Below are positions 5,526 through 44,064 of a stretch of 64,000 nt of DNA, in pieces; within the stretch, counting starts at the first letter, position 1, and each line of letters begins with the position of its first letter. Source of the DNA: Parcubacteria group bacterium (GTDB lineage: Bacteria > Patescibacteriota > Minisyncoccia > Phycocordibacterales > CALRHW01); the NCBI GenBank assembly GCA_039740835.1, contig JBCLGW010000001.1, forward strand, positions 27,640 to 91,639. The letters run 5' to 3'. The notes beneath the pieces were generated by a model, which saw nothing but the letters and a program-made list of their open reading frames with translations, had not been told where the DNA came from and did no database searches. Both the position numbers and the translations under genes were made by a program.

Positions 5526-6518
5526 ATGAAAATCCCATCAACAAAAATTATTCTGGTTTTGATTTCTTGCGTTGTTGCGGTAGCAATCATTTTTATAGGT
5601 ACAAAAACTTCAAAAAATGAGCCGGCCGTAGCTAGCCAAAACGAAACTATAGAGCCACGAGTGATGATAAGCACCTCCTTGCAGGGAACTTCAGAAATAG
5701 ACACTGACAGCGACGGACTCAAAGATTGGGAAGAAGTGCTCTGGGGTCTAGATTCCAAAAAAGCCGACACAGACGGCGATGGTATTGATGATAAAAAAGA
5801 AGTTGAACTAATACAGCTTAAAAAGGCGGATGGTGTTGTACCCACAGTATCTAGCACGACAAAAAAATCTACTGCCCCAGAAGGACCCCCCACCCTTACA
5901 GACCAACTTGCTAGACAAACATTTTCTAAATACATAAATTACAAACAAATGGGTGTGCCGATAACTAAAGAAATTACTCAGAAACTTGTGGAAGATGTCC
6001 TCGCAACAAACCTATTCAATCAAAACTTACCAAAATTTAACTCTGCGCACCTAAAAAATATTGTAGAAAGTGACGAAAAAAGCGCCTTTCACGACTACGG
6101 CAATAATTTGTGGGATATAATGGTAAAAAATACACCAAAAAATACGGTCTTGGAAAATGAATATTCTATATTTCAGAGAGCAATAGAAAAAGATGACGAG
6201 AGAGAACTAAAAAAACTAGACCCGATAATAACTGGTTACAGAAATACGGTTTTGGATATAATTTCAATGCCAGTCCCAAGAAATATGGTAGGAAAGCACC
6301 TAGAACTTATAAACTCCATGAACACACTTTTGGCATCCATAGAAGATATGCGGGTGTATTTCACAGATTCTGCGCGTGGTTTTGCGGTGCTATCATACTA
6401 TACAGACAAAGTTTCTGCACTTAAAAAAGCTTTGGTTGGTCTGGTGGATATTTTAAACAAAAATGGTGTGGAATATGTGGAGGGTGAGGGTGGATACACG
6501 CTAATGTATAGTATATAA
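5526..6518 (+). CDS. Membrane-anchored hypothetical protein with Asp-rich, calcium-binding-like repeats (thrombospondin-type-3-like)
   Basis: N-terminal transmembrane segment. The sequence DTDSDGLKDWEEV...DTDGDGIDDKKEVE follows a DxDxDG pattern. 330 aa. Confidence 0.4.
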   Translation: MKIPSTKIILVLISCVVAVAIIFIGTKTSKNEPAVASQNETIEPRVMISTSLQGTSEIDTDSDGLKDWEEVLWGLDSKKADTDGDGIDDKKEVELIQLKKADGVVPTVSSTTKKSTAPEGPPTLTDQLARQTFSKYINYKQMGVPITKEITQKLVEDVLATNLFNQNLPKFNSAHLKNIVESDEKSAFHDYGNNLWDIMVKNTPKNTVLENEYSIFQRAIEKDDERELKKLDPIITGYRNTVLDIISMPVPRNMVGKHLELINSMNTLLASIEDMRVYFTDSARGFAVLSYYTDKVSALKKALVGLVDILNKNGVEYVEGEGGYTLMYSI

Positions 6519-6536: not shown

Positions 6537-8003
6537 GTGTTATTAAAATATTTTAAAAAATCTTTATTTACTGTTTTTCTTTCAATTGTTGTTTTTACCT
6601 TTTTTGTTCCAACAAAAGCTAGCGCGCAAATACCGATCGCTGTGCCAATAATGGAGGTGGGAACTCTCTTATTAACCACCATAGAGATGGCATATCAAAC
6701 AGCTCTAACGGGTTTGAGCACAGATGCAATAGCTGAGAACACTGCGATGCTCTCTGCAAAAGAAACGGGTGTAGGAATCGGCGCATTTGGAATACCTCAC
6801 AGCTCCGCAACAGTGGCGGCGACAAATTCGCTGACCCTCGACTCCATCGCTATCAAGATTATGAAAAATTTAATCTCATCTATCACAGAAGCAACTGTCA
6901 ACTGGATAAATACTGGTTTCGATGGCGGACCACAGTTTGTTACAGACCCAGCTTCTTTTTTCATAAACGTAGCGGATAGGGTGATCGGTGAGTTTATAGA
7001 GGATACTGCGGGTACGAAATCTGATTTAAGTTTTCTCTGTTCTCCTTTTCAAATCCGCTTCGCTCTACGTCTAAACTACTCAGCATCTTTTAAAAATAAA
7101 ATCAAATGTACATTGAGTGATGTCGTAGGAAACATAGAAAACTTCTATAATGATTTTAGTGCGAATGGCTGGACAGGATGGTTTAGTATGACTCAAAACA
7201 GTCAGAACAATACTTACGGAGCATTCATAGCTGCAGATATGGAGCTCAGTAAAAAGCTAGCGACCACTCTGGGAATAGAGGAAAATAAACAAAGCTGGGG
7301 TCAAGGATTTCTTTCGTGGCAAGATTGTCTTGATGTTCCCGCACCAGCGACAGGTGTTGAGTGTAAAAAGAAAGGACCAATAAAAACTCCGGGGAAGATC
7401 ATAAACAGCCAGCTAGAAGAAGTACTCGGCACAGACTTGCGCCAGCTAGAGCTTGCAGACGAGTTTGATGAAATTATCGGTGCTTTGGTACAGCAAGCGA
7501 TGAAACAAGTCATGGTGGGGTTTGGAGCTCTAACAGCTGGTCCGAAAACCCAAGCGACAAGTGAAATGAGTACAACAATAGAAACAATAAGAACAGCAGA
7601 AAAACTTGATGCTCCTGTAAAGGCTAATCTACGTAATGCGCAACTACAAGCACACCAAGTTTATACCAAAACAACACCATTCAGTTATGGTACAGTGGAT
7701 TTTTCTGCAACCGGTGGTGCTGCTGCCGCTTGTAGCAATGTGACTACTAGCACCCTGTTTGCTAACCCAATAATATTTAGTCATATCACCGCAGCTACAG
7801 TAGCCGGCGGGGGTACAAATGCTTGTAGTAGTATCGCTGTAACAGATGGTGGTAAGTGGGCTATTGCTGTTAATTTGAAAAGTGTCGCGAAATCTTTCTG
7901 GTGTGTAGACAGTACTGGAAGGGCACAAATTAGTGGTGTAGCAACATCCACCAACAGCCAAGCTTATGCTAACTCGGTCGTTGCTGGTAGTAAGTGTAAC
8001 TAA
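6537..8003 (+). CDS. Secreted hypothetical protein (488 aa) at the head of the T4SS-like cluster
   Basis: Signal peptide ending ...PTKASAQ, Thr/Ser-rich, with paired Cys near the C-terminus. No recognised family. Confidence 0.4.
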   Translation: MLLKYFKKSLFTVFLSIVVFTFFVPTKASAQIPIAVPIMEVGTLLLTTIEMAYQTALTGLSTDAIAENTAMLSAKETGVGIGAFGIPHSSATVAATNSLTLDSIAIKIMKNLISSITEATVNWINTGFDGGPQFVTDPASFFINVADRVIGEFIEDTAGTKSDLSFLCSPFQIRFALRLNYSASFKNKIKCTLSDVVGNIENFYNDFSANGWTGWFSMTQNSQNNTYGAFIAADMELSKKLATTLGIEENKQSWGQGFLSWQDCLDVPAPATGVECKKKGPIKTPGKIINSQLEEVLGTDLRQLELADEFDEIIGALVQQAMKQVMVGFGALTAGPKTQATSEMSTTIETIRTAEKLDAPVKANLRNAQLQAHQVYTKTTPFSYGTVDFSATGGAAAACSNVTTSTLFANPIIFSHITAATVAGGGTNACSSIAVTDGGKWAIAVNLKSVAKSFWCVDSTGRAQISGVATSTNSQAYANSVVAGSKCN

Positions 8004-8043: not shown

Positions 8044-10248
8044 ATGAAAAAGTTTTTTACTAAAAAATTATTCAGAAACATACTTATAGCGACTTTTGTG
8101 GTGGCAATGTTTTTGCCAATTACTGTAACTGCTCAAGGTGCTTTTGTTGAGGCTGTTGCTAATGCTACTGTTGGGCCTAATGTTGTGCTGGCGGCAAAGA
8201 TTATTGCTGGGATTGGCGGGGAGCTTTTTATGGCGAGAATACGAGCCGCTGTCAACGAGGGTGTAAACGTTCTTGTGGGGTGGCTTGGTAATCTACTACT
8301 AACAATTTCATCCTTTTTCCTTTGGCTTGCCGGACTTTTACTAACTGTTGTCCTGGACGAAACAATGATGAAAATGGGGACAAATATTGATGGCATGCGC
8401 TCAATAAATGTGGGTTGGGCTGCACTCAGAGATGTTGCAAACTTATTTTTTATTTTTATTTTACTTTATGTTGCTATAGGTAGTATTTTAAATATCAGTG
8501 GGGTACAGATTAAAAAAATGCTTGTAAATGTTGTTATTATAGCGCTTTTAATAAACTTCAGTATGTTTTTTACAAAAATGATAATAGACGCATCCAATAT
8601 CTTAACAATTAGTTTCTATAATGCGATTCAGAGCGAAACAAAAGATGGAATTTCTGGAGCAATTGTTCACAAAATGAAACTAACGGGAATATACAACCCC
8701 AGCTCTCAATGGGGAGTGGAACAAGGAGCAACTGCTACACTTGCGGCACAAACAAGGGCGAAAAACAACCCAGTAGACGAGACCATTAGAATACTTATTC
8801 TAAGTATTTTTGGCTCCGTTTTTATGTTTATAGCGGCATTTATATTTCTCGCATTCAGCGTAATGTTTATAGGAAGATTTGTAATACTAATATTTTTACT
8901 AATATTGTCTCCCGTGGCGTTTATCTCAATGGCTCTACCAGAAGATAAGTACTCAAAAAAGTGGTGGAATGCCTTGTTTGCACAGTGTATTTTTGCGCCG
9001 GCATGTATGGCTCTTTTGTGGGTCAGTATAAAAATGCTGGAGGGCATAAATTTTGCTCCCCAAGATTCAAGTTTAGCTGGTTTAAGTTCTGGAGACCCCA
9101 AAGCAGTTCTATTGGTTCTAAATTTTATCGTGATAATATCTATGCTTATTTTTACACTTGTCGTAGCAAAAGAATTTGGAGCATATGGTGCAAACAAGGG
9201 AATGAGCATGTTAAAAACTGCCGGAAATAAGGCGAGAGGGGTGGTTAGTGGGGCGGCTAAAAGAGGGGCGGGAATGGCTGCAAGAGGGGCATTGCGTGGT
9301 GTTGCGAGCGCAACGGGTCTTGACAAATTCCGAGATAGCACTAAAGCAAAAAGTAAGATCTGGCGCACTATTTTGACTCCAGTTAATGCTGTAATGAATG
9401 CAAAAATGCCAGACGGTCAATCGGTGGATTCTGTAAAAGAAAGAGAAGAAAAGTTGAATGCCAAACATTCAGATGCTGTACTAGAAGACAAAAAAGTCGC
9501 GGCAGAGGCAGAGAAGCTAGCAAATGATAAAAAAGCCACAAAAGACAAGGCGGCAGCAGAGAGTGAGATAGAGAACCTAAACAAAGAAATGGTGGGTGTG
9601 CTTGAAAAAAGTCCGGGAGGCGCGGGTAATATAAACACACTTCATTCTCTAAAAAAAGAACTTGAGGTTTTGGGAGAACAATACAACCAATCGACAAATG
9701 AGGGAGACAAAAAGGCAATAGTGGAGCAAATGAAAGCGAAGCGAGAAAAGATACAAGATACACAAAAGAGTGTTGACTCTCAGACAGATAAAATACCTAA
9801 AGCACAAGCAATTAAAGAGCGTCTTGATGCTGTAAAAGGTGAGGTCCGTGGTGCAGAAAAGACGATAGGAAAGGCTATTGATGAGTATTTAGCTGATGCT
9901 CTAAAAGCGGAGGCAGAAAAAATTGAAAGGGCTCCTAGAATATTGGATGGGGTAAGTAATTGGGCAAGTAAAAAGATAAAGCCAATGTTAGAAAAGCTCA
10001 AGATTGGTAGAAGTAGAACAAATAACGTTGGTGATGTTGTTTTTAACACTACGGGGTGGGTAAGGGGTGTGCTTAGGGACGCAATGGGACTATCTCAACA
10101 CAGAAACAATCTCGCCAAGAATCTGCGGAAGGCAGCAAAAAAACAGAGTTTGGAAGAACTGCTTAAAGAAACAAACAAACTCCAAAAGGAACGTGCGAAC
10201 GCAGAAAGCAAGCCTAAAGATTCTGGTGCTGGTAAACCAACAACATAA
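8044..10248 (+). CDS. VirB6/TrbL-like polytopic membrane protein with a long C-terminal coiled-coil tail
   Basis: Signal peptide, then a large loop, then at least five hydrophobic helices in the TrbL/VirB6 arrangement. The K/E-rich C-terminal coiled coil is about 350 aa. It lies next to the PrgI-like and VirB4 genes. Confidence 0.45.
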   Translation: MKKFFTKKLFRNILIATFVVAMFLPITVTAQGAFVEAVANATVGPNVVLAAKIIAGIGGELFMARIRAAVNEGVNVLVGWLGNLLLTISSFFLWLAGLLLTVVLDETMMKMGTNIDGMRSINVGWAALRDVANLFFIFILLYVAIGSILNISGVQIKKMLVNVVIIALLINFSMFFTKMIIDASNILTISFYNAIQSETKDGISGAIVHKMKLTGIYNPSSQWGVEQGATATLAAQTRAKNNPVDETIRILILSIFGSVFMFIAAFIFLAFSVMFIGRFVILIFLLILSPVAFISMALPEDKYSKKWWNALFAQCIFAPACMALLWVSIKMLEGINFAPQDSSLAGLSSGDPKAVLLVLNFIVIISMLIFTLVVAKEFGAYGANKGMSMLKTAGNKARGVVSGAAKRGAGMAARGALRGVASATGLDKFRDSTKAKSKIWRTILTPVNAVMNAKMPDGQSVDSVKEREEKLNAKHSDAVLEDKKVAAEAEKLANDKKATKDKAAAESEIENLNKEMVGVLEKSPGGAGNINTLHSLKKELEVLGEQYNQSTNEGDKKAIVEQMKAKREKIQDTQKSVDSQTDKIPKAQAIKERLDAVKGEVRGAEKTIGKAIDEYLADALKAEAEKIERAPRILDGVSNWASKKIKPMLEKLKIGRSRTNNVGDVVFNTTGWVRGVLRDAMGLSQHRNNLAKNLRKAAKKQSLEELLKETNKLQKERANAESKPKDSGAGKPTT

Positions 10249-10254
10249 ATAAAT

Positions 10255-10848
10255 ATGGACGAAACATTACAAAAAAACATAGCAGATCAGTGGGAGATAC
10301 TTCCAGATGACATCAAAGCTGTTTTACTTTCACCTGAATTAGAAACAAAACTTGATGTTGTTGCGGAAAAATATCAACTCGCGCCAGAGCAGGCAGTGTC
10401 TCTAAAAACAGAGGTTCAGCTTGTTTTGCTTGGCTTAGAACACATCATTGATTTTGCAAAGAATCTTACGGAAGAATTAAAAATCCAAAAAGAGCAGGCC
10501 CGCGCTATTTCTCAAGAAGTGGGCAGTCAAATATTTTTAGGTGTAAAAGAATCTCTAAAGACACTCGGTGAAATAATAGATATTTTGGATTCTGCGGTAG
10601 AAGATTATAAAAAAGAAATGGCTGAACAAAAAGAAACTCAAACCCCAACAGAACAAATAACCCCAGAAACTATTCTGCCCCCAAACCCGCCCGACATCAC
10701 TCTCATTCCAGAGCACACTGAGCTGGGCACAATAATAGACGAAAAGCTCAGTAAAATAGTGCGCACACCGACAGAAAAAGTGGTTATTTCCGAAAGACCA
10801 GCAAACACATACAAGGGAAATGACCCATATCGTGAACCAACAGAATAA
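10255..10848 (+). CDS. Acidic hypothetical protein within the T4SS-like cluster
   Basis: ORF tightly packed between the VirB6-like and PrgI-like genes. No transmembrane segment. Glu-rich. Confidence 0.35.
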   Translation: MDETLQKNIADQWEILPDDIKAVLLSPELETKLDVVAEKYQLAPEQAVSLKTEVQLVLLGLEHIIDFAKNLTEELKIQKEQARAISQEVGSQIFLGVKESLKTLGEIIDILDSAVEDYKKEMAEQKETQTPTEQITPETILPPNPPDITLIPEHTELGTIIDEKLSKIVRTPTEKVVISERPANTYKGNDPYREPTE

Positions 10849-10851
10849 ACT

Positions 10852-11277
10852 ATGAGATTTCAAGTGCCACAATTTACAGATGTTGAGGACAAAATTTTTG
10901 GTCCGCTGACATTCAAGCAGTTTGTATATCTAGCTGGAAGCGGTGGCCTTTGCGTGATTATTTACTTTTTGATACCGATAGGGTTTGTCGCATTTGCTTT
11001 GATGTTGCCTGTGGCTGCGTTTGGAGCAGCACTCGCTTTTTATAAAGTAAACGGCAAGTCTTTTATAAACATGGTGGAGGCATTTTTAAAATACTCAATA
11101 GCAGGAAAGCTCTACATCTGGAAACAAATTGAAAAAAAGCCGGTGGTGGGGTCTGCACCAAAAGAGCTTTCTAGCTCATTTTTACCAAAACTCTCGGGTA
11201 GTAAGCTAAAAGATATGACTTGGAACCTTGGCGTAACAGAGAGCATCAACCCCGTAACAAGAAATGATTTAAATTAA
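10852..11277 (+). CDS. PrgI-family (VirB3-like) T4SS membrane protein
   Basis: N-terminus VPQFTDVEDKIFGPLTFKQFVYLAGSGGL followed by two transmembrane helices. This is the PrgI (PF12666) pattern. It sits immediately upstream of VirB4, as in Gram-positive T4SS. Confidence 0.55.
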   Translation: MRFQVPQFTDVEDKIFGPLTFKQFVYLAGSGGLCVIIYFLIPIGFVAFALMLPVAAFGAALAFYKVNGKSFINMVEAFLKYSIAGKLYIWKQIEKKPVVGSAPKELSSSFLPKLSGSKLKDMTWNLGVTESINPVTRNDLN

Positions 11278-11304
11278 GAGAGAAATAAGATATAATTCTT
11301 TAAT

Positions 11305-11943
11305 ATGGCAACAAAAGCTCAAGCCACCCAAGAATTTGTTCCTTTGACTGATATCAAAGACGGCATAGTCACCCTAAAAGATGGCTCACTTCGAGCTGTG
11401 CTCATGGCTTCAAGCGTCAACTTTTCCCTAAAATCAGAAGACGAGCGTATCGCAATTCTTTATCAGTTTCAAGATTTTCTAAACTCGCTAGATTTTTCTG
11501 TGCAAATTTTTATCCAATCACGTCGTCTAGATATTCGCCCATATATCGCTCTACTAGAAGAGCGAGAGAAAAATCAGGTCAACGACCTCATGAAGATTCA
11601 GGTGCAAGAATACATTCAGTTTATAAAAAAGTTTACGGAGGATACAAACATAATGACAAAACATTTTTTTGTTGTCGTGCCGTATTCTCCAGCGACTCTA
11701 CAAGTAAAAAACCCCCTCGCAAATATTTTTGGAAAAAAGAAAAATTCCGAGGGGGAAAAGATTTCAATGCAAGAAAAGTTTGAAGAAAATCGCACACAAC
11801 TAGAGCAGAGACTTTCTGTGGTAGAGCAGGGGCTGGTGCGTAGTGGTGTGCGAATAGTACAGCTTGGCACAGAGGAAATAGTCGAGCTTTTCTACAAAAT
11901 ATTTAATCCGGGTGATGCAGAAAAACCTATTCAACTTCAATAA
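11305..11943 (+). CDS. VirB4/TraC/CagE-family N-terminal domain (first segment of a VirB4 split by an in-frame TAA)
   Basis: DGIVTLKDGSLRAVLMASSVNFSLKSEDERIAILYQFQDFLNSL-DFSVQIFIQSRR aligns with the conserved VirB4 N-terminus (A. tumefaciens VirB4: DHIVLLEDGSIMSIAHVSGLPFELEE...). It ends at TAA, with ATG three nucleotides later in the same frame. Confidence 0.55.
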   Translation: MATKAQATQEFVPLTDIKDGIVTLKDGSLRAVLMASSVNFSLKSEDERIAILYQFQDFLNSLDFSVQIFIQSRRLDIRPYIALLEEREKNQVNDLMKIQVQEYIQFIKKFTEDTNIMTKHFFVVVPYSPATLQVKNPLANIFGKKKNSEGEKISMQEKFEENRTQLEQRLSVVEQGLVRSGVRIVQLGTEEIVELFYKIFNPGDAEKPIQLQ

Positions 11944-17782: not shown

Positions 17783-18112
17783 CTATATTATTTGGGCTTT
17801 TTTCATCAAACCCACGATTTCTTCTTTTTGTTTTTCAAAAGATAATGTCAGAGCTCCTTTTTTTGCCGAAAAAACGGCTTTGGCTGGTTTTTTTATATCA
17901 CTCAAATGTTCTCGGATTAAAGAGTATACTCTTCGGCGGATTCTGTTTCTATCTACTGCATTTTGGGCTACTTTTTTTGAAACAAGCACGGCATAAGAGT
18001 CTGTATTTGAGGGTAGAGCTCTAAGGGTAAAATAGGTTGAGTGGTACAAAGACCCTTGTAGTAGAATCGGTTTAAAAGAATCTTTTGAAATTCTTTTATG
18101 CTTTGGCAACAT
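17783..18112 (-). CDS. rnpA: Ribonuclease P protein component
   Basis: Basic protein with RNase P motif KKVAQNAVDRNRIRRRVYSLIRE. Located between rpmH and yidC. Confidence 0.7.
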   Translation of the reverse strand: MLPKHKRISKDSFKPILLQGSLYHSTYFTLRALPSNTDSYAVLVSKKVAQNAVDRNRIRRRVYSLIREHLSDIKKPAKAVFSAKKGALTLSFEKQKEEIVGLMKKAQII

Positions 18113-18121
18113 AAAATATGG

Positions 18122-18256
18122 CTATACAGAGAGCTTTGTTCGGCCTTTTCGTCGGCGTCGAGTGATGACCTTTTTACCCCCAGCTGTTCTAGACCGCACT
18201 AGAAAACCGTGAGATCTTGCTCGTTTTCGTTTTTTTGGTTGGTATGTTTGAGACAT
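18122..18256 (-). CDS. rpmH: 50S ribosomal protein L34
   Basis: Manual translation gives [44 protein letters not shown] (44 aa), which is canonical L34. It was missed by the ORF track because it is under 60 aa. Confidence 0.8.
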
Positions 18257-18412
18257 ATAGGGGGATTATATATGAGTAATCTGATTATTTCAAGGTTTTT
18301 GGTGCTATTAGACTTATTCACAGTATATACACAGAGTATCAACATAATTAGGTATTTACCGCAAGTATAAAACAACTCATCATCATATATAATAAACCTT
18401 AAGAAATTTAAA

Positions 18413-19774
18413 ATGCAGACTCAAATTATGGATAGTAAAAAAATGTGGGATAGTGTACTTGTGGATGTTGAAATAAATGTTTCAAAAGCAAATTTTAATA
18501 CGTGGTTTAAAGATACCTTTATTTACAAAATAGAAGAGGGAATTGTTTACTTGAGCGTACCAAATTCATTTGTAAAACAGTGGTTGATGGATAAATATCA
18601 CGCCTTTATACTCAAATCTCTACGAAATCTCTCAGAAAACATCCGATCTTTGGATTATATAGTCAACAAGGGGGATATAAAGAAAAAAGAGGATGAAATG
18701 CCTAAAAATATTACTGCGAGTACAAACGAGCTACCACTTTCAGAGTTTTATATAAACAAAGATGATAATTTAAATCCGAAATACACATTTGATTCTTTTG
18801 TTATCGGCCCATTCAACGAGCTAGCTCACGCTGCATCTCAAGCAATAATCAAAAAACCGGGGATTATTTACAACCCGCTTTTTATTTACGGAAATACTGG
18901 CCACGGAAAAACTCATCTCATCCAAGCGATAGGTAACACAATGAAGCACAACTACCCCGACAGAAAAATCTGTTATGTAACTTCAGAAAAATTTACTGTT
19001 GACTACGTAAACTCTGTTCAAAACAACAAAGTAAATCAGTTTAAGGATAAATATAGAAAATACGACATTCTAATAATGGACGACATCCAGTTTTTCTCAA
19101 AAAAAGAAAGCACACAGGAGGAGCTTTTCCATCTTTTCAACCACCTATACGACAACAACAAACAAATTATATTCTCTTCTGATAAACACCCCAACTACAT
19201 TCAAAACCTAGAAGAGCGCCTCAAATCACGCTTTGGGGCTGGAATGATAGTGGACATACCAGCGCCTAATCACGAATCTAGGGTGGCTATATTAAACGCT
19301 AAACTAAAGTTTCATAACTTTAATCTTCAGCCAGAGATAGTAGACTTTCTAGCTGGGACGCTCTCCTCCAACATCCGCGAGCTTGAGGGTGCTTTAAACA
19401 GCATCATCTGCCAAGCAGAACTTAAACAAAAAGATCTCACACTAGCTGATGTAAAAAATCTCCTTAAAAACAGTGTCAAACCAAAGAAAAATCTTTCTCC
19501 AAAGGAAATTATAAAAATAATCGCTGATTTTTATAATATAAACGAGGAAAGTATATACGAAAAAACTCGTAAAAAAGAAATTATCAAACCTCGCCAACTA
19601 GCAATGTATGTGTTGAGAGAAGATTTCAATATATCTTACCCATCAATAGGGGAGAAAATGGGGGGGAGAGATCACACCACAGTTATTCATTCCTGTGAAA
19701 AGATAAAAAAGGATTTGAAATATGATAATCTTTTAATGCAGGAGTTAAACCAAATCCGGTCGATGTTGGTTTGA
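18413..19774 (+). CDS. dnaA: Chromosomal replication initiator DnaA
   Basis: AAA+ Walker A motif GNTGHGKTHL, sensor motifs, and a C-terminal DnaA-box-binding domain (..KPRQLAMYVLRE..). Gene order is rpmH, dnaA, dnaN. Confidence 0.9.
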   Translation: MQTQIMDSKKMWDSVLVDVEINVSKANFNTWFKDTFIYKIEEGIVYLSVPNSFVKQWLMDKYHAFILKSLRNLSENIRSLDYIVNKGDIKKKEDEMPKNITASTNELPLSEFYINKDDNLNPKYTFDSFVIGPFNELAHAASQAIIKKPGIIYNPLFIYGNTGHGKTHLIQAIGNTMKHNYPDRKICYVTSEKFTVDYVNSVQNNKVNQFKDKYRKYDILIMDDIQFFSKKESTQEELFHLFNHLYDNNKQIIFSSDKHPNYIQNLEERLKSRFGAGMIVDIPAPNHESRVAILNAKLKFHNFNLQPEIVDFLAGTLSSNIRELEGALNSIICQAELKQKDLTLADVKNLLKNSVKPKKNLSPKEIIKIIADFYNINEESIYEKTRKKEIIKPRQLAMYVLREDFNISYPSIGEKMGGRDHTTVIHSCEKIKKDLKYDNLLMQELNQIRSMLV

Positions 19775-20004
19775 CCTTTTTAGTGCTGTGTATATGATGT
19801 GAATAAAGTGCAATAGATGTGGATAAGATTGGGGTGTTTTAAAAAAGAGATTACTTATAAACAAACCGCCAAAAATAATCAACACCTTTTTAAACTTAAA
19901 CCCATAAAAAACGTTGCAAAATATAGTTAAATAAAGTTATCCAGTTATCAACACCCCTAGTATTAATAATAAATTTATATATAGATATATATTAAATACT
20001 GCTT
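19775..20004. promoter_or_regulatory. Putative oriC: DnaA boxes plus an AT-rich unwinding element between dnaA and dnaN
   Basis: Perfect DnaA box TGTGGATAA at 19818-19826. Near-consensus boxes TTATCCAGT at 19935-19943 and TTATCAACA at 19944-19952. An AT-rich stretch lies at 19958-19995. An additional box-like TTATTCACA sits upstream of dnaA near 18313. Confidence 0.6.
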
Positions 20005-21108
20005 ATGAAAGTAGAATGCCTAACAGAAAAATTAAGTAAAAGTATTTTACAAGCAGAAAGAATTGCTGGTAAAACACACTCACTTCCTATTATTAATTGT
20101 GTGTTTATACAAGCTAAGGATAATTCTTTAATAATACGGTCAACAAATCTTGATTTGGGTGTTGAGATAATAATTCCTGTAAAAGTTTTTGAGGAAGGGG
20201 TGGTGGTGGTGCCGGCGCAAATTTTAGGGGTTTTTCTATCTAGTCTTTTAGGTGATAAAACAGTGACACTACACACAGAGGATAATGTTTTATTAGTTTC
20301 ATCTCAAAAAAACTCAACAAAAATAAAAACTCATATAAATGAAGATTTCCCAACAATACCAGTAGTTTCTAAAGAAAAAAGTTTTAATATAAAAGCATTA
20401 GATTTTATAAAAGGTTTGAAGTCTGTGTGGTATAGCTCGTCTGTTTCAAGTATAAAGTCAGAACTAGCTAGTGTTTATGTTTACTATGATGAGGATGATA
20501 ATTTTGTTTTTGTGGCAACAGATTCATTTAGACTTGCGGAGAAAAAAATAAAAGTAAATAAAATAAAAGATTTTGACCATATTTTAATACCATTTAAAAA
20601 TATTCCAGAAATAATAAGGGTTCTTGAGGGGGCAACAAACGACGTGAGTATTTGTTTAGAAAAAAACCAAATATCTTTTAGTTATGAAAATATTTATCTA
20701 ACATCTCGTGTTATTGATGGTGTTTTCCCAGATTACAAACAAATTATTCCAAAAACACAAACAACAGAAGTTGTTATGTTGAAACAAGATTTTATAAATT
20801 CTTTAAAAATCGCAAACATTTTCTCAAATAAATTAAATCAAATAAATATAAAAGCCGTACCTTCTAAGAAAATATTTGAATTACAAACAAAAAACTCGGA
20901 TGTTGGAGAAAATATAAACGAAATAGACGCTATTTTTAGTGGGGAAGACGTAGATATAAACTTTAATTATAAGTATATAGTTGATTGTTTACAGTCTATA
21001 GATTCAGATAGTATCTCTTTAAATTTCAACGGCATAAGTAAACCAATGGTTATTCGTGGTGTTTCTGATAAATCATTTCTTTATCTTGTGATGCCTATGA
21101 ATAAATAG
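20005..21108 (+). CDS. dnaN: DNA polymerase III beta sliding clamp
   Basis: 367 aa, three-domain clamp. N-terminus MKVECLTEKL.. It sits directly after dnaA and oriC. Confidence 0.85.
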   Translation: MKVECLTEKLSKSILQAERIAGKTHSLPIINCVFIQAKDNSLIIRSTNLDLGVEIIIPVKVFEEGVVVVPAQILGVFLSSLLGDKTVTLHTEDNVLLVSSQKNSTKIKTHINEDFPTIPVVSKEKSFNIKALDFIKGLKSVWYSSSVSSIKSELASVYVYYDEDDNFVFVATDSFRLAEKKIKVNKIKDFDHILIPFKNIPEIIRVLEGATNDVSICLEKNQISFSYENIYLTSRVIDGVFPDYKQIIPKTQTTEVVMLKQDFINSLKIANIFSNKLNQINIKAVPSKKIFELQTKNSDVGENINEIDAIFSGEDVDINFNYKYIVDCLQSIDSDSISLNFNGISKPMVIRGVSDKSFLYLVMPMNK

Positions 21109-21112
21109 GTTT

Positions 21113-21367
21113 ATGGAAAATATTTCATCTTTTTTAGAAAAATTTAAGAAATTTCTATCCTCTAGTGTTTCAGTAAAACAATCTGTCGTGGAGGTTTTAA
21201 AAGATGTTTTAGGTGTTGATGTTGATACTAAATCTATCAATATAAAAAATAGTTTTGTTTTTATAAAATGTTCCCCAGCGCTAAAAAACGCAATCTTTTT
21301 AAAAAAGAAATTAATTATTGATGGTATCAACCAAAAAACTAAAGCCAGTATCTCTGATATTCGCTAG
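21113..21367 (+). CDS. Small DUF721/DciA-like protein, a putative replicative-helicase loader
   Basis: 84 aa immediately downstream of dnaN. The C-terminal segment FVFIKCSPALKNAIFLKKKLIIDGINQ resembles the DciA/DUF721 core. This assignment is tentative. Confidence 0.3.
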   Translation: MENISSFLEKFKKFLSSSVSVKQSVVEVLKDVLGVDVDTKSINIKNSFVFIKCSPALKNAIFLKKKLIIDGINQKTKASISDIR

Positions 21368-23898
21368 GGTTGGTTGTTTATTGTAAAAATAGACCTCACC
21401 TCACCTCTATTAAAAATAGAGTCATAGAGCACCACTCGCATCTCGTTTTCACCGTTTTTTATGTATTCCAAATCTTTTGGAATAAAAGAGAAAGAAAAAG
21501 TAGACGACACACTACTTCCAACAAAGTTTTCATTTATATAATACTCAGCTTTTGTGATTGGGTAGTTTGCAGAATATTCAATAGAAGATGTTATTTTTTT
21601 ATCAGACTCGTAAACTTGATTGTTTTGTGGTTCTTCAATAAACACCACCGGTTTGTTTTCTGGTATGTGTACATCGTCGAATTCTGTTGGGATACTACTT
21701 TCATCTACTGGACGGATGTTGTTTTGTATAAGCCATTTTTGTACACCATACTCCCAACTTATAAATTGAGAATCATCCTCAGGTCTTAATGGTGGGTCTT
21801 CTCTCGGACTCTCTTTTTTAATCCAGTATAAAATATCGTGTGTCTCTCCAGTGACTATTTCAGATGTTGTCTCTATTGGTGTGTACTCTGTCGCAAGTTT
21901 TCCTGACACAGTGTCTATAAAATAACTTGTACCACCCTGCCATTTTCCACGAAGCACTGGTTTTAGATTAAAAGAATTTTCTACTTCTGGTTTTTTGAAA
22001 AATTCTTTAGGATAATTTTCCAGAGCTTTTTTCATCACCTGATTCCAAAATGGGGCGATGATATATCCAGCCACTTTTTTATTCATTGGAGTATTATTGT
22101 TGTTTCCAGCCCAAGCACCAATAACAAGACTTGGTGTATAGCCGATTATCCAAGCATCTTTATAGTTGTTGGTGGTACCGGTTTTTACAGCCACATCTCT
22201 GCCGGATATATAGAGTGGTGAATTAACTCCAAAAGTAGGCGCACGTGCATCGTTGTCTGATAGAATGTTTGAAATTTGTAGAGCAATATTTTCTGGTAAA
22301 ACATTTGTTGAGGTGTTTGTTGGTTTTTCTACTACAGTTTCGTTTTTTGTGCGGATCTCAAGTATTGGCTGGTATGGATATCGCATACCGTTGTTTGCAA
22401 AAACACCATAAGCGCTAGTCATATCAAGTAAAGAAACCTCTCCACCTCCCAAAACAAGCGTTAGGCCGTACTGACCGGCATTTGTGAGACTTTGTATACC
22501 CATATCTTTTGCTAGTCGTAGCACATCATTTATGCCCGCTAGATAGAGTGTTTTTACTGCGGGAATGTTTATGGATTGTCCCAAAGCATTTCTAATTGAT
22601 ATTGGTCCACGAAAACTACTGTCGTAATTTGTTGGAGAGTAGCACCCCTCATCACTTGTTTCGTTTTCTGGTGGGCAAGTGGTAGAAAACTGAGTTTTAA
22701 CATCAAAAAGCATTGTGTCTGGCGTATAACCTTTCATAAAAGCTGTTGCGTACGCAAAAGGTTTAAATGCAGACCCTGGCTGTCTTTTTGCTAGAGCGAC
22801 ATTGAAGTTACCGTCTATTTCTTTATCAAAATAATCACGAGAGCCAACCAAAGAAAGTATCTCTCCATTTTTTGGATCAATAGCTACCACCGCAATGTTT
22901 TCTGCTTGGTATTCTTTTGCGTTTTTTAGAGCAAAAATCTTTGCTTGCTTCTCCAACATTTCTTGGAGCTTGTAATCTAGGGTGGTTATTACTTTTAGAC
23001 CACCCTCTTCTAGTACTTGCGCGCCGTATTTTTTCTCAAGCAAGTCTTTTACAAACATTACAAAATGCGGGGCTTTTATGCCGAGACTTTGTTGGTCTTT
23101 AAAAATAACTTTTTCATCTTTTGCTTGGTTGTACTCAACTTCAGAAATATAATTGTTTTTTAACATTTCTTGCAAGACAAGATTTTTTCGGAAATCCAAA
23201 CCCTCGCGATTTTTGTACGGAGAATAAAAACTCGGGGCTTTTGGTAGAGCGGCTAGGTATGCCGACTCTGCGATAGTCACATCAGACGCGCGTTTACCAA
23301 AAAAGGCGTTGCTAGCTTCTTCTATACCATAAAGACTACCCCCATAAGGGATTTCATTTAAATACATTCCCAAAATTTCTTGTTTTGTAAGAATTTTTTC
23401 TAGTTTTATAGCCAACACCCACTCCTTTGCTTTTCTAGTGATACTTTTTTCTCTAGTGAGTAGTGAGTTTTTTACAACCTGCTGGGTGATAGTAGACCCG
23501 CCCTGACTAAACTTCCGGGTTTGGAGGTTTGCAAACGCCGCTCTGATAAGAGAAGACGGTTTTACTCCTTTATGGCTATAAAATTCTTTGTCTTCTATGG
23601 AGATTGTTGCATTTTTTATGTGTTTGGAAATACTATCAAATGGCACAACCGTTCTTTTTATGTTTTGATACACATCGTAGAGTAAAACCTCCCCAGTGCG
23701 GTCATATATTTTTGTAGATTGAGAAACCTTTCTTTCCTGAAATGAGTCTAGGGTGGGGAGTTGAAATGTTGAAATCCAAAAAATAAAACCAGAAACAAAC
23801 AAAAGGAATGCCCCAACGCTAAAAAGGAAGATGTTTTTTAAACCAGTTTTTCTCGACCATTTTTTAATAAATGAAATACGTTTTTTCATAATGTCCAT
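21364..23898 (-). CDS. Class A penicillin-binding protein (bifunctional transglycosylase/transpeptidase, PBP1A-type) with a C-terminal extension
   Basis: N-terminal transmembrane segment. GT51 motifs IEDKEFYSHKG and RQPGSAFKP. Transpeptidase SxxK (GSAFK), SxN and KTG motifs. 844 aa. Confidence 0.85.
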   Translation of the reverse strand: MDIMKKRISFIKKWSRKTGLKNIFLFSVGAFLLFVSGFIFWISTFQLPTLDSFQERKVSQSTKIYDRTGEVLLYDVYQNIKRTVVPFDSISKHIKNATISIEDKEFYSHKGVKPSSLIRAAFANLQTRKFSQGGSTITQQVVKNSLLTREKSITRKAKEWVLAIKLEKILTKQEILGMYLNEIPYGGSLYGIEEASNAFFGKRASDVTIAESAYLAALPKAPSFYSPYKNREGLDFRKNLVLQEMLKNNYISEVEYNQAKDEKVIFKDQQSLGIKAPHFVMFVKDLLEKKYGAQVLEEGGLKVITTLDYKLQEMLEKQAKIFALKNAKEYQAENIAVVAIDPKNGEILSLVGSRDYFDKEIDGNFNVALAKRQPGSAFKPFAYATAFMKGYTPDTMLFDVKTQFSTTCPPENETSDEGCYSPTNYDSSFRGPISIRNALGQSINIPAVKTLYLAGINDVLRLAKDMGIQSLTNAGQYGLTLVLGGGEVSLLDMTSAYGVFANNGMRYPYQPILEIRTKNETVVEKPTNTSTNVLPENIALQISNILSDNDARAPTFGVNSPLYISGRDVAVKTGTTNNYKDAWIIGYTPSLVIGAWAGNNNNTPMNKKVAGYIIAPFWNQVMKKALENYPKEFFKKPEVENSFNLKPVLRGKWQGGTSYFIDTVSGKLATEYTPIETTSEIVTGETHDILYWIKKESPREDPPLRPEDDSQFISWEYGVQKWLIQNNIRPVDESSIPTEFDDVHIPENKPVVFIEEPQNNQVYESDKKITSSIEYSANYPITKAEYYINENFVGSSVSSTFSFSFIPKDLEYIKNGENEMRVVLYDSIFNRGEVRSIFTINNQP

Positions 23899-39713: not shown

Positions 39714-39737
39714 ATCAAAAGTAAAACAAAAACACAA

Positions 39738-39768
39738 AACCACCCGAGAGGGTGGTTTTATTTTGGAA
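39738..39768. terminator. Bidirectional rho-independent terminator
   Basis: Hairpin CCACCCGAGAGGGTGG followed by TTTTATTTT. On the opposite strand it overlaps the stop codon of the 39758-41248 gene. Confidence 0.5.
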
Positions 39769-41248
39769 TTTTGCTAAATCTATAGCCAGTTTGTTTGTTA
39801 AAGATAGTCTTCTCAAGACTGTTTTGATATGAAGCCAAACACGGATCTATTACTTTTTTAATATCTTCTAACTTTTTCAACTCCGGCTCCACATCAATAC
39901 CTTTGCCCTTTAAAAACCTTACTATCATTATTGCATGAGCCCACGCATCTCGTTCTTCTGATACATAAGTATCCATTGTTTTTTGAAAAGCAGCACTTTT
40001 TATAGGATAAAAACGTATTTGCGATTTCGTTTTAGCAAGCATAGATGGTAGCTCATCCCTCCCTGATTGAGAAATTTTAGTATCGGGCAGACCAAGTGTT
40101 TCCACATACTTAGCAAGTTCAAAATAGGCGTTGGGAATATTTATCACACCCTCTTGATTTGTGGGAATCTCTGTACCATTTTTATCCAAACATTCGATTC
40201 CAGATTTTTCTAATTGCTCCCAAATCTTGTCAGGTTCTTCATAGTCTTCACTATCTTTTGGAAGTTCGAGTTTAGAAATAAGTGTCGTAACAGTCTCATA
40301 AATTCCTTCAAACCCTGCTCTACCTTGATCAGAAGTATGGTAATACTTATTTTGCCAAGCATGAGCAACTTCGTGGAGAAGAGAAAGTATACCGCCAGTT
40401 TTTTTTAAATCTCCATAATTTACTATCTTATGCGACGGTCTCATTGCAAAACCCTCTGGGTCAGATTCTCCCATTTTATAATTTTTTAGATCTGCAACTT
40501 CTTTTTGCTTGTAACTTTTTCCAGTAATACTTTCGGCATCAGGTTGAAAAAAAAGCTCTTTATCCATAGCTCGCGGTACAAATTTGCAATTGGATGGCAA
40601 AAGAGCATTCAGGTCTAGAGTAATTCCATTTTTAATATCTTGAATTACCAACGAAGATTCAGCGTAATTTGTATTCCCTGGTCTGTCTATGGTATTAGAA
40701 ACTCTTTCGTAAATAAGATTTTGATTTCCATCTTGTTTTGACGCGTTAGTAGTCGTTTGTTCCACAACGCCATTTAATCTTTCGTTCTCCTCAACCCCCC
40801 CTTCAAAAGTTAACCTTTCTCTCCCATGAAGAGAGTCTTTTAATATTTCATTTCTTTGATTTTTGTATTCTTTTAGTGATAGTTCTTCAACTTCGTCAGT
40901 AAATAATTTGTGCCGTTCTGTACTCTCTGACGCCATTATCCAATTAGCTGAACCAACATTTGGGACACCGTCAATTTCCGGCTTTCTCAAACCATCGGGA
41001 ATTAGACCTCGAAAAAATTCTCCGGCCTCAGTGCTTAATTGTTTGGCATCTTGCTGTGCGTCAGCAAGTCTCTCAAAATCTTTTTGAATCTCTTTTGTAT
41101 CAAAAAGTTTACGTAAAATTTGGTCAAGAGCATTAAGCACCTTTTCTCTTAATTGTTCTCTGAATGCCTTACCACTCTCCGCTTTTATCATTTCAGAAGT
41201 TTCTGGTGAATTAGGGAATCTTTCGTTCATATTATGATTATAACTCAT
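39758..41248 (-). CDS. Hypothetical 496-aa protein with a HExxHxxQ motif (putative zincin-like metallopeptidase, DUF4157-like)
   Basis: No signal peptide. The only recognisable element is LLHEVAHAWQN, an HExxH followed by Gln. The remainder is Glu/Lys-rich. Confidence 0.4.
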   Translation of the reverse strand: MSYNHNMNERFPNSPETSEMIKAESGKAFREQLREKVLNALDQILRKLFDTKEIQKDFERLADAQQDAKQLSTEAGEFFRGLIPDGLRKPEIDGVPNVGSANWIMASESTERHKLFTDEVEELSLKEYKNQRNEILKDSLHGRERLTFEGGVEENERLNGVVEQTTTNASKQDGNQNLIYERVSNTIDRPGNTNYAESSLVIQDIKNGITLDLNALLPSNCKFVPRAMDKELFFQPDAESITGKSYKQKEVADLKNYKMGESDPEGFAMRPSHKIVNYGDLKKTGGILSLLHEVAHAWQNKYYHTSDQGRAGFEGIYETVTTLISKLELPKDSEDYEEPDKIWEQLEKSGIECLDKNGTEIPTNQEGVINIPNAYFELAKYVETLGLPDTKISQSGRDELPSMLAKTKSQIRFYPIKSAAFQKTMDTYVSEERDAWAHAIMIVRFLKGKGIDVEPELKKLEDIKKVIDPCLASYQNSLEKTIFNKQTGYRFSKIPK

Positions 41249-41322
41249 CCTGAGCGAGTTGAAAGGAGTCGCACCACTGACAATTTCAAATTTTTCTTTG
41301 GCTGCAACTAATTCTAATAATT

Positions 41323-41919
41323 TTATTTAACCTTTGGAAACTTTTTTGATTTCATAATTTTATATACCACCCCCATGACAGCAAGAGCAACAATGCCAGC
41401 CACAATTTCTATAGAGAAACTATTCGCAGACTTCGGTTCAGATGTCTGGACCGCTTCCGTTGGAAGTGTTCCTTTCCCTAGCTTAGTTAAGTCTTCGTTG
41501 GCTCGGGCTAATATAGTTGTTCGTTTGCAAAAACTTGTTCCTAAAGTTCCATCATCTTGCTTGGACGCATACACCAGATATTCTTCGTTTTCCTTGAACC
41601 AGAACCCATTACAAGTGAAATAATTATGGACAGTATGCAAGACAGCTTGTTTCTCATTTGAGCCCTTCCACCATTGTGAAACATTAAAAGTTACAATAGT
41701 TCTTGGTTCGGGCGACTTTTGCAGTGGATTATCCAAATATTCTATCTTGCTGACTTTACCAGTAAAGACAGCATCAGAACTTGAAAGTGCGCCCTCTATC
41801 GACGCCAGTGTACAATCACAAGCGAAGGCATTTGGTGTTTGTGAGAAAACAAACAATGAAAAAACAATGAGGGTGAGAAGTGCAGTGCGTAATTTTTTTG
41901 TAAAATTCTCAAAATTCAT
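41323..41919 (-). CDS. Secreted, C-terminally membrane-anchored TIMP/NTR-like protein (putative metalloprotease inhibitor fold)
   Basis: Signal peptide ending ..PNAFA, after which the mature protein begins CDC. Spacing matches TIMP N-domains: C-x-C...FTGKV...WKG...C...EYLV...C. A C-terminal transmembrane helix plus KKFPKVK follows. Confidence 0.35.
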   Translation of the reverse strand: MNFENFTKKLRTALLTLIVFSLFVFSQTPNAFACDCTLASIEGALSSSDAVFTGKVSKIEYLDNPLQKSPEPRTIVTFNVSQWWKGSNEKQAVLHTVHNYFTCNGFWFKENEEYLVYASKQDDGTLGTSFCKRTTILARANEDLTKLGKGTLPTEAVQTSEPKSANSFSIEIVAGIVALAVMGVVYKIMKSKKFPKVK

Positions 41920-41964: not shown

Positions 41965-42039
41965 TGGTGCTCTCAGTAGGAATCGGACCTACATCGCAAG
42001 CTCCGCAAGCTCGCATTCTATCCATTGAACTATGAGAGC
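41965..42039 (-). tRNA. tRNA-Arg (anticodon GCG as read; CCA encoded)
   Basis: Reverse strand reads GCTCTCATAGTTCAATGGATAGAATGCGAGCTTGCGGAGCTTGCGATGTAGGTCCGATTCCTACTGAGAGCACCA. The cloverleaf is consistent and the anticodon loop is UUGCGGA. Confidence 0.65.
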
Positions 42040-42070: not shown

Positions 42071-42532
42071 CTAAAATCCCAAGTATTCCATAATTTTTTG
42101 AAAAAGTGGTTCTTGAAGTTTTTCTGCGTGCAAAAACCGGTCGAGATAATTGTGCACCTCATCAACATTCATATCTTCTAAACGCACAACTATCAAAGGC
42201 AAGAAAAACCTTTTTGATTTTAAAAGTAATGCTGGTGGATGTTCCTCGTCATTTACCCAAAAAGATTCAAGCACTCCGTACGGATATTTTGTTTTGTCTA
42301 TGGCCACACCAGTCGCATCAATGTGAATGCGAAGTACACGAGGCGCGCGAGCTGTTTGTAAGACGAGCGCAACTGTTGCAATGACAACAAAAATTGCAAA
42401 AATAATATTACTCAAAATCACCGCAGTCACGGCAATAGATACAGCAATAATACCAACAACCCAAAACCAGTCGTTTGATTTTTCATCATGATGGTGTTCT
42501 AGAGCTTCCCATTCAAGAGGAGAGTTTTCCAT
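42071..42532 (-). CDS. Hypothetical membrane protein
   Basis: 153 aa with two adjacent transmembrane helices (WFWVVGIIAVSIAVTAVILSNIIFAIFVVIATVALVL). Confidence 0.4.
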   Translation of the reverse strand: MENSPLEWEALEHHHDEKSNDWFWVVGIIAVSIAVTAVILSNIIFAIFVVIATVALVLQTARAPRVLRIHIDATGVAIDKTKYPYGVLESFWVNDEEHPPALLLKSKRFFLPLIVVRLEDMNVDEVHNYLDRFLHAEKLQEPLFQKIMEYLGF

Positions 42533-42888: not shown

Positions 42889-43440
42889 TTAGTTGGTCGG
42901 CACAGTAACCGCAAGAGAAAGAGCGTTGCTAGTTCCTCTTCCATCAACACTGACAGATAATGAGTACTGGCCTGGAGTTATTTTCGTATATCTATCTGCT
43001 GGACAACCACCAGCTCCATCTGCATTAATCATGCAGATGGATTGGGGTAGAGTAAAAGTAATTTTATTTGAAATTGGATGTGGACCATCACTAGCAGGTG
43101 CCCCACCCCTCCACAATATTGTTACTTGACCAGTGTCTTTGTTTTTGATTTTTACAAAAATATGAGGACTAGTCATCCAGCCAATACCTGAGTACCCACC
43201 AAGTGGATCAAGATTTGTTCCTTTGATTGTTACTGATGAACCGATGGGTGTGGTGGCAGAAGAAACTAGACTAATCACAGGATTAGTTGTGGTGGCTGGA
43301 GAAGTTTCTGTAGATAAATTATTAATTGAGGCCGGTGATTCTACTTTTTTGTTTTCATAAACATAGAGACCGCCAATAATTAACAATGCAATAGCTCCAA
43401 GAATCGCGGAAACTACGAAACCCTTATTTTGATTTTTCAT
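42889..43440 (-). CDS. Secreted hypothetical protein (Ig-like)
   Basis: N-terminal transmembrane/signal segment (FVVSAILGAIALLIIGGLYVY). Thr/Ser-rich. 183 aa. Confidence 0.4.
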   Translation of the reverse strand: MKNQNKGFVVSAILGAIALLIIGGLYVYENKKVESPASINNLSTETSPATTTNPVISLVSSATTPIGSSVTIKGTNLDPLGGYSGIGWMTSPHIFVKIKNKDTGQVTILWRGGAPASDGPHPISNKITFTLPQSICMINADGAGGCPADRYTKITPGQYSLSVSVDGRGTSNALSLAVTVPTN

Positions 43441-43496: not shown

Positions 43497-43587
43497 TGGC
43501 GGAGGAAGTGAGATTCGAACTCACGATCCAGTTACCCAGATTCCGCTTTTCAAGAGCGGTGCCTTAAACCTCTCGAGCCATTCCTCC
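43497..43587 (-). tRNA. tRNA-Ser (anticodon UGA), long variable arm, CCA encoded
   Basis: Reverse strand reads GGAGGAATGGCTCGAGAGGTTTAAGGCACCGCTCTTGAAAAGCGGAATCTGGGTAACTGGATCGTGAGTTCGAATCTCACTTCCTCCGCCA. Confidence 0.8.
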
Positions 43588-44064
43588 ATATTTTGTTTTT
43601 TGTAACCAACTTTTCTCTAAAAAATGTTCTTCATAATGACAGTTTGGACAAATTAATTCTAAATTTTCCAACCGGTTATTTTTTCTGTCCCTATCCTTGT
43701 GATGCACCTGTAAAATCTCATATTTATTATAATCACACCTTTCGCACTTTGTTCCTCTCTGGTCTAATAACCTAATTTTTAAGGCTCTTTGGTGTTTGAC
43801 TTTGTCTTTTGGTTTACCAATATGATATTTTGTACCCGATCTATTAATGTTTGAGCAACTTCTACTGCAGGTTTTTTTGTTTAAACCAGCCAAGATTAAT
43901 TTGCCACAAACCAGACAAGAAACCTCTTTTCTAGAAAAAATACCGTAACAAACCGCACCACAAAATACATTGCCACTGTTTTGTTTAATCTGGGAAGGTC
44001 TTTTGTAAATGAGATTTGCGCAAATCACACACTGAGTATTGGGTTTCCTTTTGTATGTTTCCAC
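43564..44064 (-). CDS. HNH endonuclease with N-terminal Cys4 zinc ribbons
   Basis: HNH motif CERCDYNKYEILQVHHKDRDRKNNRLENLELICPNCH. The N-terminal half has three CxxC pairs. The 3' end overlaps tRNA-Ser by about 24 nt. Confidence 0.7.
   Translation of the reverse strand: METYKRKPNTQCVICANLIYKRPSQIKQNSGNVFCGAVCYGIFSRKEVSCLVCGKLILAGLNKKTCSRSCSNINRSGTKYHIGKPKDKVKHQRALKIRLLDQRGTKCERCDYNKYEILQVHHKDRDRKNNRLENLELICPNCHYEEHFLEKSWLQKTKYGGMAREV

Follow-up and report, generated by a model that had tools for sequence, protein, structure and literature searches.

Two neighbouring genes of a Parcubacteria group bacterium raise the question whether a bacterium can carry an inhibitor built like the animal tissue inhibitors of metalloproteinases (TIMPs), and whether such an inhibitor is paired with the zincin-like protein encoded next to it. 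The genes lie in a 64-kb stretch of contig JBCLGW010000001.1 (the window; all coordinates are window positions unless a locus is named). A first-pass annotation of the window had described them as encoding a secreted TIMP-like protein and a protein with an HExxH motif, and both open reading frames (ORFs) were found on the minus strand, at 41323-41919 (198 amino acids) and 39758-41248 (496 amino acids). The smaller gene encodes a genuine homologue of the TIMP N-domain, with a resemblance well beyond chance. With fair confidence, we take its product to be a surface-tethered metalloprotease inhibitor and the HExxH neighbour to be a separate gene, not its cognate partner.

For the smaller gene, the following features were delimited:

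41323..41919, minus strand: TIMP-like gene, 198 amino acids (ORF); signal peptide, NTR/TIMP N-domain, linker and C-terminal membrane anchor
41821..41919, minus strand: signal peptide, residues 1-33, ending in A-F-A, of the signal peptidase I type by rule-based sequence reading
41812..41820, minus strand: Cys34-Asp35-Cys36 (Cys-x-Cys, CxC), predicted mature N-terminus; codons tgt gat tgt, read 41820-41812
41470..41820, minus strand: TIMP N-domain-like OB/NTR fold in the model, residues 34-150, with Cys103 and Cys131
41353..41469, minus strand: polar linker (about 151-166), C-terminal transmembrane helix (about 167-189) and basic tail, from model and hydropathy
41965..42039, minus strand: tRNA-Arg(gcg) (tRNA call), directly upstream of the TIMP-like gene

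The N-terminus reads MNFENFTKKLRTALLTLIVFSLFVFSQTPNAFA followed by CDC. Basic residues (K8, K9, R11) form the n-region and precede a hydrophobic stretch, TALLTLIVFSLFVF, with a 14-residue core; the c-region A-F-A is followed at once by C34-D35-C36. In an AlphaFold2 model, the signal-peptide region was modelled as a helix (residues 3-26). Beyond residue 150 a polar linker leads to a transmembrane helix with a basic tail, and nothing else follows. The hydrophobic helix (168-191 in the model; Kyte-Doolittle maximum 2.24 in a 19-residue window) is followed by KSKKFPKVK, in agreement with the C-terminal membrane anchor claimed earlier. Matches to the Shiga toxin B subunit (NCBIfam and PHROG; E 0.003-0.06, 14-18 bits against cut-offs above 165) covered only the signal peptide and the first strand and were dismissed.

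Searched against Pfam, the 198-amino-acid protein scored 22.1 bits with the TIMP profile (PF00965; E=1.4e-4, residues 33-132 on profile positions 2-108), which is 1 bit under the gathering cut-off of 23.1. A precomputed PF00965 match exists for 3 of 4 close homologues (63-74% identical), and many more distant relatives lie above the cut-off (27-39 bits). A family profile was built from 100 family sequences and searched against all sequences of the Protein Data Bank (PDB). It matched TIMPs alone (TIMP-2 best, E=9.7e-10, then TIMP-3 and TIMP-1), and its alignment to TIMP-2 begins exactly at mature Cys1. Because close homologues and more distant relatives pass the Pfam cut-off and the family profile matches TIMP-2 at this E-value, homology to the TIMPs (MEROPS family I35) is regarded as established. 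In the alignment made with the family hidden Markov model (HMM), Cys34, Cys36, Cys103 and Cys131 correspond to Cys1, Cys3, Cys72 and Cys101 of TIMP-2, and C34-D35-C36 to Cys1-Ser2-Cys3 of its mature form. Identity to TIMP-2 amounts to 21 of 97 aligned residues. The conserved residues listed in the first-pass annotation (FTGKV, WKG, C, EYLV, C) are all present and fall on invariant or near-invariant columns of the family alignment.

The AlphaFold2 model, computed from the family alignment, reached a mean predicted local distance difference test (pLDDT) score of 90.1. An OB/NTR fold is predicted, with strands at 50-61, 73-85, 91-97 and 113-120 and helices at 41-47 and 141-147. When the model was compared with the PDB using Foldseek, the best 15 matches were all TIMP-1, TIMP-2 or TIMP-3 (E 6e-6 to 1.5e-4), with target-normalised TM-scores of up to 0.68 (against N-TIMP-3). 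Sequence, predicted fold and family conservation all support the earlier TIMP/NTR-like reading. The next Foldseek matches were other NTR modules, namely PCOLCE, agrin NtA, complement C345C and Metrnl. These matches would fit a different function for the same fold, in which the domain would inhibit no protease and would serve as a surface binding or adhesion module, like agrin NtA or netrin-type NTR domains, that might aid an episymbiotic Patescibacterium in attachment to a host cell. The surface anchoring of the protein fits this as well.

To delimit the family of the 198-amino-acid protein, a profile of seven close relatives was searched against 1.84 billion cluster representatives (50% identity clusters). 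At least 11,410 proteins were matched at E<=1e-3 and 4,199 at E<=1e-10, mostly 180-200 amino acids long; the 198-amino-acid protein matches the family profile at E=1.5e-51. From the family, 230 sequences were sampled, and the counts below refer to the 225 with CxC within the first 80 residues. Ala directly precedes the first Cys (position -1) in 218 of the 225, and an AxA-like signal peptidase I site (-3/-1) is present in 215. The middle residue of CxC is Ser, as in TIMP-2, in 183 and Asp in 15. Exactly four Cys occur within the domain in 211 sequences. C-termini carry a transmembrane segment in most cases (184/225), LPxTG in one and no anchor in 30; ten sequences are longer multi-domain proteins. 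Cleavage after Ala33 was assigned by the A-x-A rule together with this conservation and is rule-based. The typical n/h/c signal peptide, the prevalence of Ala at -1 and the start of the profile alignment at TIMP-2 Cys1 bear out the earlier proposal that CDC forms the mature N-terminus. The N-terminal Cys was also considered as a lipoprotein signal; this was rejected because position -3 is Ala and -4 Asn here and only 10 of the 225 sequences have a classical lipobox.

Named members of the family come from Halobacillus, Peribacillus, Chungangia, Gracilibacteria, Peribacteria, a gammaproteobacterium, an acidobacterium, Nitrosopumilus, Nitrosarchaeum and a nanoarchaeote. The family thus reaches from Patescibacteria, Bacillales, Proteobacteria and Acidobacteria to Nitrosopumilus-type archaea and Nanoarchaeota. 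It is already visible in databases, since UniRef labels two members (Halobacillus, Peribacillus) 'Tissue inhibitor of metalloproteinase'; the Chungangia member is labelled 'LPXTG cell wall anchor domain-containing protein'. The gene at 41323-41919 is a further member of this very large, database-visible yet experimentally uncharacterised family. It shares with the other members a length of about 185-200 amino acids, the signal peptide, the A-CxC junction, four Cys and the C-terminal anchor. It differs in scoring 1 bit below the Pfam cut-off and in its place within a small sub-clade from Patescibacteria (63-74% identity), where position 2 is variable (D, S, E, S and R among five sequences). This variation could reflect diverging specificity. 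A mobile origin found no support for either gene: there was no match in 50,697 phage records, IMG/VR or PADLOC, and PHROGs gave nothing meaningful, the one match, at 0.058, lying on the signal-peptide region and pointing to Shiga toxin subunit B. One Patescibacteria locus with a 63%-identical TIMP-like gene (L001) has a type IV secretion-like cluster (8202-11333; PrgI, TraC-like protein, VirB4/TraG-type ATPase) about 1.6 kb downstream, in this one genome only.

In every longer relative checked, the TIMP-like domain starts within the first 26 residues. Such strict N-terminal placement is what a mechanism using a free alpha-amino group predicts. NTR modules that do not inhibit are not known to occupy other than internal or C-terminal positions. 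Three relatives carry domains of other protease-inhibitor classes, a serpin in one (P0107, E=4e-113) and Kazal domains in the other two (P0250 and P0174), and are predicted to be dual-class protease inhibitors; others are fused to beta-propeller or DUF4377 domains. A binding or adhesion role would agree with the beta-propeller and DUF4377 fusions, with Asp at position 2 and with the lack of any protease linkage in the loci inspected. The position of CxC right after the signal-peptidase site (215-218 of 225) and of the domain at the N-terminus of every fusion checked, however, make sense if the free N-terminus matters. Moreover, fusion to serpin and Kazal domains speaks for protease inhibition, and at sequence level the family profile matches TIMPs only and no other NTR module. 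A non-inhibitory NTR function is considered unlikely.

A conserved CxC at a free N-terminus could also bind a metal (Cu or Zn) through the free amine, with the cysteines acting as reduced ligands rather than forming disulfides. In keeping with this, two Gracilibacteria loci (L022 and L023) have genes for FUR and an AhpC/TSA-type peroxiredoxin no more than 5 kb from the TIMP-like gene, and L022 has a glutathione peroxidase gene in addition. This redox-gene neighbourhood is confined to one clade, however, and the four conserved Cys align one-to-one with the cysteines of two TIMP-2 disulfides. Their number, exactly four in 211 of 225 sequences, is the pattern of paired structural cysteines, and a metal site of this kind appears highly improbable.

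If the protein is an inhibitor of the TIMP type, it would be exported by the Sec pathway and cut by signal peptidase I after Ala33, which would leave Cys34 as a free N-terminus. Disulfides Cys34-Cys103 and Cys36-Cys131 would match TIMP Cys1-Cys70/72 and Cys3-Cys99/101, which in TIMPs fix the inhibitory N-terminal ridge, and would keep the N-terminal segment rigid, as a ridge on the OB-fold barrel. The short linker and the C-terminal transmembrane helix would tether the domain at the cell exterior. By analogy with TIMPs, Cys34 would chelate, through its free amine and its carbonyl, the active-site zinc of an extracellular metalloprotease, whose S1' pocket would take up residue 35. The cell surface would thereby be shielded from metalloproteases that neighbours, hosts or the cell itself secrete. 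Variation at the S1'-pocket residue (D/S/E/S/R in the Patescibacteria clade) would be expected if specificity is retuned against metalloproteases of hosts or competitors.

Several observations weigh against inhibition by this mechanism or against treating the two genes as separate. The third N-domain disulfide of TIMPs (Cys13-Cys124/126) is absent, with Ser46 at the Cys13 position and only four Cys in the domain, and so is the entire TIMP C-terminal domain with its three further disulfides. Position 2 is Asp, where TIMP-2 and most of the family have Ser. Acidic residues at this position weakened binding of matrix metalloproteinases in mutagenesis of TIMP-1, so that Asp35 calls for caution. In the loci examined, no recurrent genomic link of TIMP-like genes to any metalloprotease was seen, and the literature searched yielded no biochemical data on any prokaryotic TIMP-like member. 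Finally, the TIMP-like and HExxH genes might still be co-transcribed and form a lineage-specific pair, being on the same strand and 74 nt apart with no intervening terminator.

The interest of these results lies at the family level, in the relation of prokaryotic TIMPs to the view of a eumetazoan origin, more than at this locus. A 2023 study placed the origin of TIMPs in eumetazoans (PMC10755359), a 2022 review treated them as a metazoan family (PMC9409782), and the authors who described Mtz-Tim of Listeria stated that they had found no bacterial TIMP-like proteins on record (PMC8235301). No discussion of the prokaryotic TIMP-like family was found in the literature searched. Tentatively, and with more doubt than is attached to the single protein, the whole family (at least 11,410 clusters at 50% identity) may consist of genuine surface-displayed inhibitors that chelate zinc through an N-terminal Cys and share common ancestry with animal TIMPs. 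Such shared ancestry, if true, would contradict the published eumetazoan origin. If inhibition holds, TIMP-type zinc plugging by a free N-terminal cysteine would be a widespread means of cell-surface protection in prokaryotes rather than an innovation of animals linked to the extracellular matrix. For ultrasmall episymbiotic Patescibacteria, tethering such an inhibitor could contribute to survival on or near other cells.

For the neighbouring gene and its flank, the following features were recorded:

39758..41248, minus strand: HExxH gene, 496 (or 490) amino acids (ORF); neighbour, probably not partner, of the TIMP-like gene
40352..40375, minus strand: HEVAHAWQ, residues 292-299, HExxHxxQ invariant in 30 sequences
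39935..39958, minus strand: EERDAWAH, residues 431-438, second invariant block by conservation and candidate source of a third metal ligand
39734..39761, minus strand: terminator-like hairpin (sequence) 3' of the HExxH gene

For the HExxH protein, 33 homologues were obtained; the few with a named source are from Patescibacteria-type metagenome-assembled genomes and the others are metagenomic. Most begin at the second Met (MNERF...), and the product may accordingly have 490 rather than 496 amino acids. The earlier description of LLHEVAHAWQN was confirmed at residues 290-300, with H292, E293, H296 and Q299 invariant in 30 homologues; E432, R433, D434, A435, W436 and H438 form a second invariant block. 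In the AlphaFold2 model (pLDDT 82.8), a beta-sheet domain is followed by helices 286-302 (HExxH) and 419-448 (second block), and the first 26 residues are predicted to be disordered. The arrangement of the two helices in this model is compatible with a zincin that takes its third ligand from downstream.

No family was matched in Pfam or NCBIfam, and Foldseek searches of the model against PDB and BFVD gave nothing significant. Weak sub-threshold matches centred on the HExxH helix recurred in several members (DUF6782, SprT-like and Peptidase_M91, E 0.05-0.12; also M61), and none reached significance or a Pfam cut-off. The first-pass annotation had likened the protein to DUF4157-type domains. This was not borne out: PF13699 matched neither the protein nor 30 members (E up to 5) nor nine isolated 105-amino-acid active-site segments (E up to 10), and just the bare HExxHxxQ pattern is in common.

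TIMPs inhibit metzincins, whose motif is HExxHxxGxxH. The motif of the HExxH protein is HEVAHAWQNKYYH, with Q in place of the metzincin G, and distant homologues do not conserve the later His; judged by its motif, the protein is placed outside the metzincins. Its hydropathy maximum of 0.8 (19-residue window) indicates neither a signal peptide nor a membrane segment, and the earlier caveat that the two proteins may occupy different compartments holds. The HExxH protein is probably cytoplasmic and looks like a zincin-like member of a small family confined to Patescibacteria.

Could the two proteins nevertheless be a cognate protease/inhibitor or effector/immunity pair, with the HExxH protein leaving by a non-Sec route and the tethered TIMP-like protein neutralising it at the surface? 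The layout of the locus speaks for it: the genes share a strand, the 74-nt gap holds no terminator-like hairpin, and the HExxH gene is the sole HExxH-containing ORF of at least 120 amino acids within the window. The disordered first 26 residues are a conceivable non-classical export signal, and Listeria offers a precedent for a bacterial metzincin with a TIMP-like protein (PMC8235301). These points were set against the distribution of the two genes in other genomes. The HExxH set comprised 31 metagenome loci and 4 from exact look-ups, 35 besides the window (about 31 distinct), and about 22 distinct loci had at least 700 nt upstream. A seven-sequence TIMP-like alignment yielded 6 genome loci. 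All loci were searched with HMMs of both families. A TIMP-like ORF occurred in none of the 35 HExxH loci outside the window, and an HExxH-family ORF was absent from all TIMP-like loci searched outside it. Likewise, an adjacent zincin was found at 0 of 12 distinct TIMP-like loci (Patescibacteria, Gracilibacteria, Bacillales and a nanoarchaeote).

Individual loci gave the same picture. Locus L008 is syntenic with the window, with PilM, a tRNA-binding protein and RuvX on one side and S20, RuvA and Fpg on the other; the HExxH ortholog is present there, and a TIMP-like gene is missing. The nearest TIMP-like homologues with downstream sequence (L001 and L004) have different neighbours. A second HExxH copy, 81% identical (P0009), lies on a contig of identical length, presumably the same one, and no second TIMP-like protein is recorded there. 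Clustering of the neighbours of the HExxH family gave rpsT as the only recurrent one (5 loci), besides housekeeping synteny among close relatives, and no functional partner emerged. The adjacency is specific to this genome, as it is missing from the other HExxH loci, from the TIMP-like loci and from the syntenic L008, and the pairing is probably coincidental. Together with the lack of a secretion signal or transmembrane segment and the non-metzincin motif, this leaves a cognate pair unsupported and scarcely credible. The conserved co-occurrence proposed as a check was thus searched for and the pair found in the window only. A TIMP/zincin gene pair should no longer be claimed, lest a chance adjacency pass as a new effector/immunity system.

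Several HExxH genes stand in an unusual setting of repeats. In L008 the ortholog is bracketed by perfect 399-nt inverted repeats (5548-5946 and 7528-7926). In L025 perfect 169-nt inverted repeats (63-231 and 1802-1970, reaching the contig end) have arms about 78% identical to those of L008, and repeats at 1-30 and 1612-1641 of L009 likewise bracket the ortholog. The window copy has no such inverted repeats. Many family members lie on contigs of 1.5-2.0 kb, and about ten fetched loci stop within about 400 nt downstream of the gene, as an assembler would produce from a segment with inverted-repeat flanks. The flanked gene may be an invertible whole-gene cassette. In L008 it adjoins a gene for a 537-amino-acid large serine recombinase. 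The same locus has 21 nt from the 3' end of tRNA-Ser(tga) (3746-3766) a second time at 8112-8132, with 95% identity. This suggests that L008:3653-8132 is an integrated element of about 4.4 kb carrying the HExxH gene. In the window, the 3' end of tRNA-Arg was sought as an island mark around both genes, and no other copy was found there.

Compared with L008, the RuvX-to-rpsT stretch of the window is apparently a variable region. On its minus strand, an HNH endonuclease ORF (43564-44064; Pfam HNH_3/HNH, many PHROG HNH families, ZorE-like in PADLOC) shares about 24 nt with the 5' part of tRNA-Ser(tga) (43497-43587, minus strand). Two more surface or membrane proteins are encoded just upstream of the TIMP-like gene (42889-43440 and 42071-42532, both minus strand). 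They are a 183-amino-acid protein that combines a hydrophobic helix at its N-terminus with an IPT/TIG domain (E=1.9e-6), and a 153-amino-acid membrane protein of no family, which is kept beside the HExxH gene region in L008 and L028. Elsewhere in the window, G+C drops to 0.31-0.34 at 18001-22000 (about 0.40 otherwise), and this segment (ORFs 18413-19774, 20005-21108 and the start of 21364-23898) may be foreign or fast-evolving.

Among known systems, the closest likeness is to the N-domain of metazoan TIMPs, especially TIMP-2. Shared features are a signal peptide directly before Cys-x-Cys, the equivalents of the cysteines of Cys1-Cys72 and Cys3-Cys101, a 'C-G-aromatic' motif after the third Cys, and the OB-fold/NTR barrel with flanking helices, which is predicted here. 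The 198-amino-acid protein differs in its prokaryotic host, in having a C-terminal transmembrane anchor and Asp at position 2 (Ser/Thr in TIMPs), and in lacking the C-domain and the third N-domain disulfide. Single-domain N-TIMP-like proteins of nematodes (hookworm netrin-domain proteins) also consist of an N-domain with no C-domain; they are soluble, secreted and eukaryotic, whereas the protein described here is prokaryotic and membrane-tethered. Mtz-Tim of Listeria monocytogenes resembles the window genes in that a surface-anchored TIMP-like bacterial protein is encoded beside an HExxH-type gene (PMC8235301). Listeria Tim is a lipoprotein that is TIMP-like in structure only (Phyre2, about 60% confidence) and is consistently paired with a secreted metzincin, by which it is cleaved (PMC8235301). 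In contrast, the window combines an unconserved pairing and a non-secreted, non-metzincin neighbour with a small protein that carries a transmembrane anchor and is homologous to TIMPs at the level of sequence.

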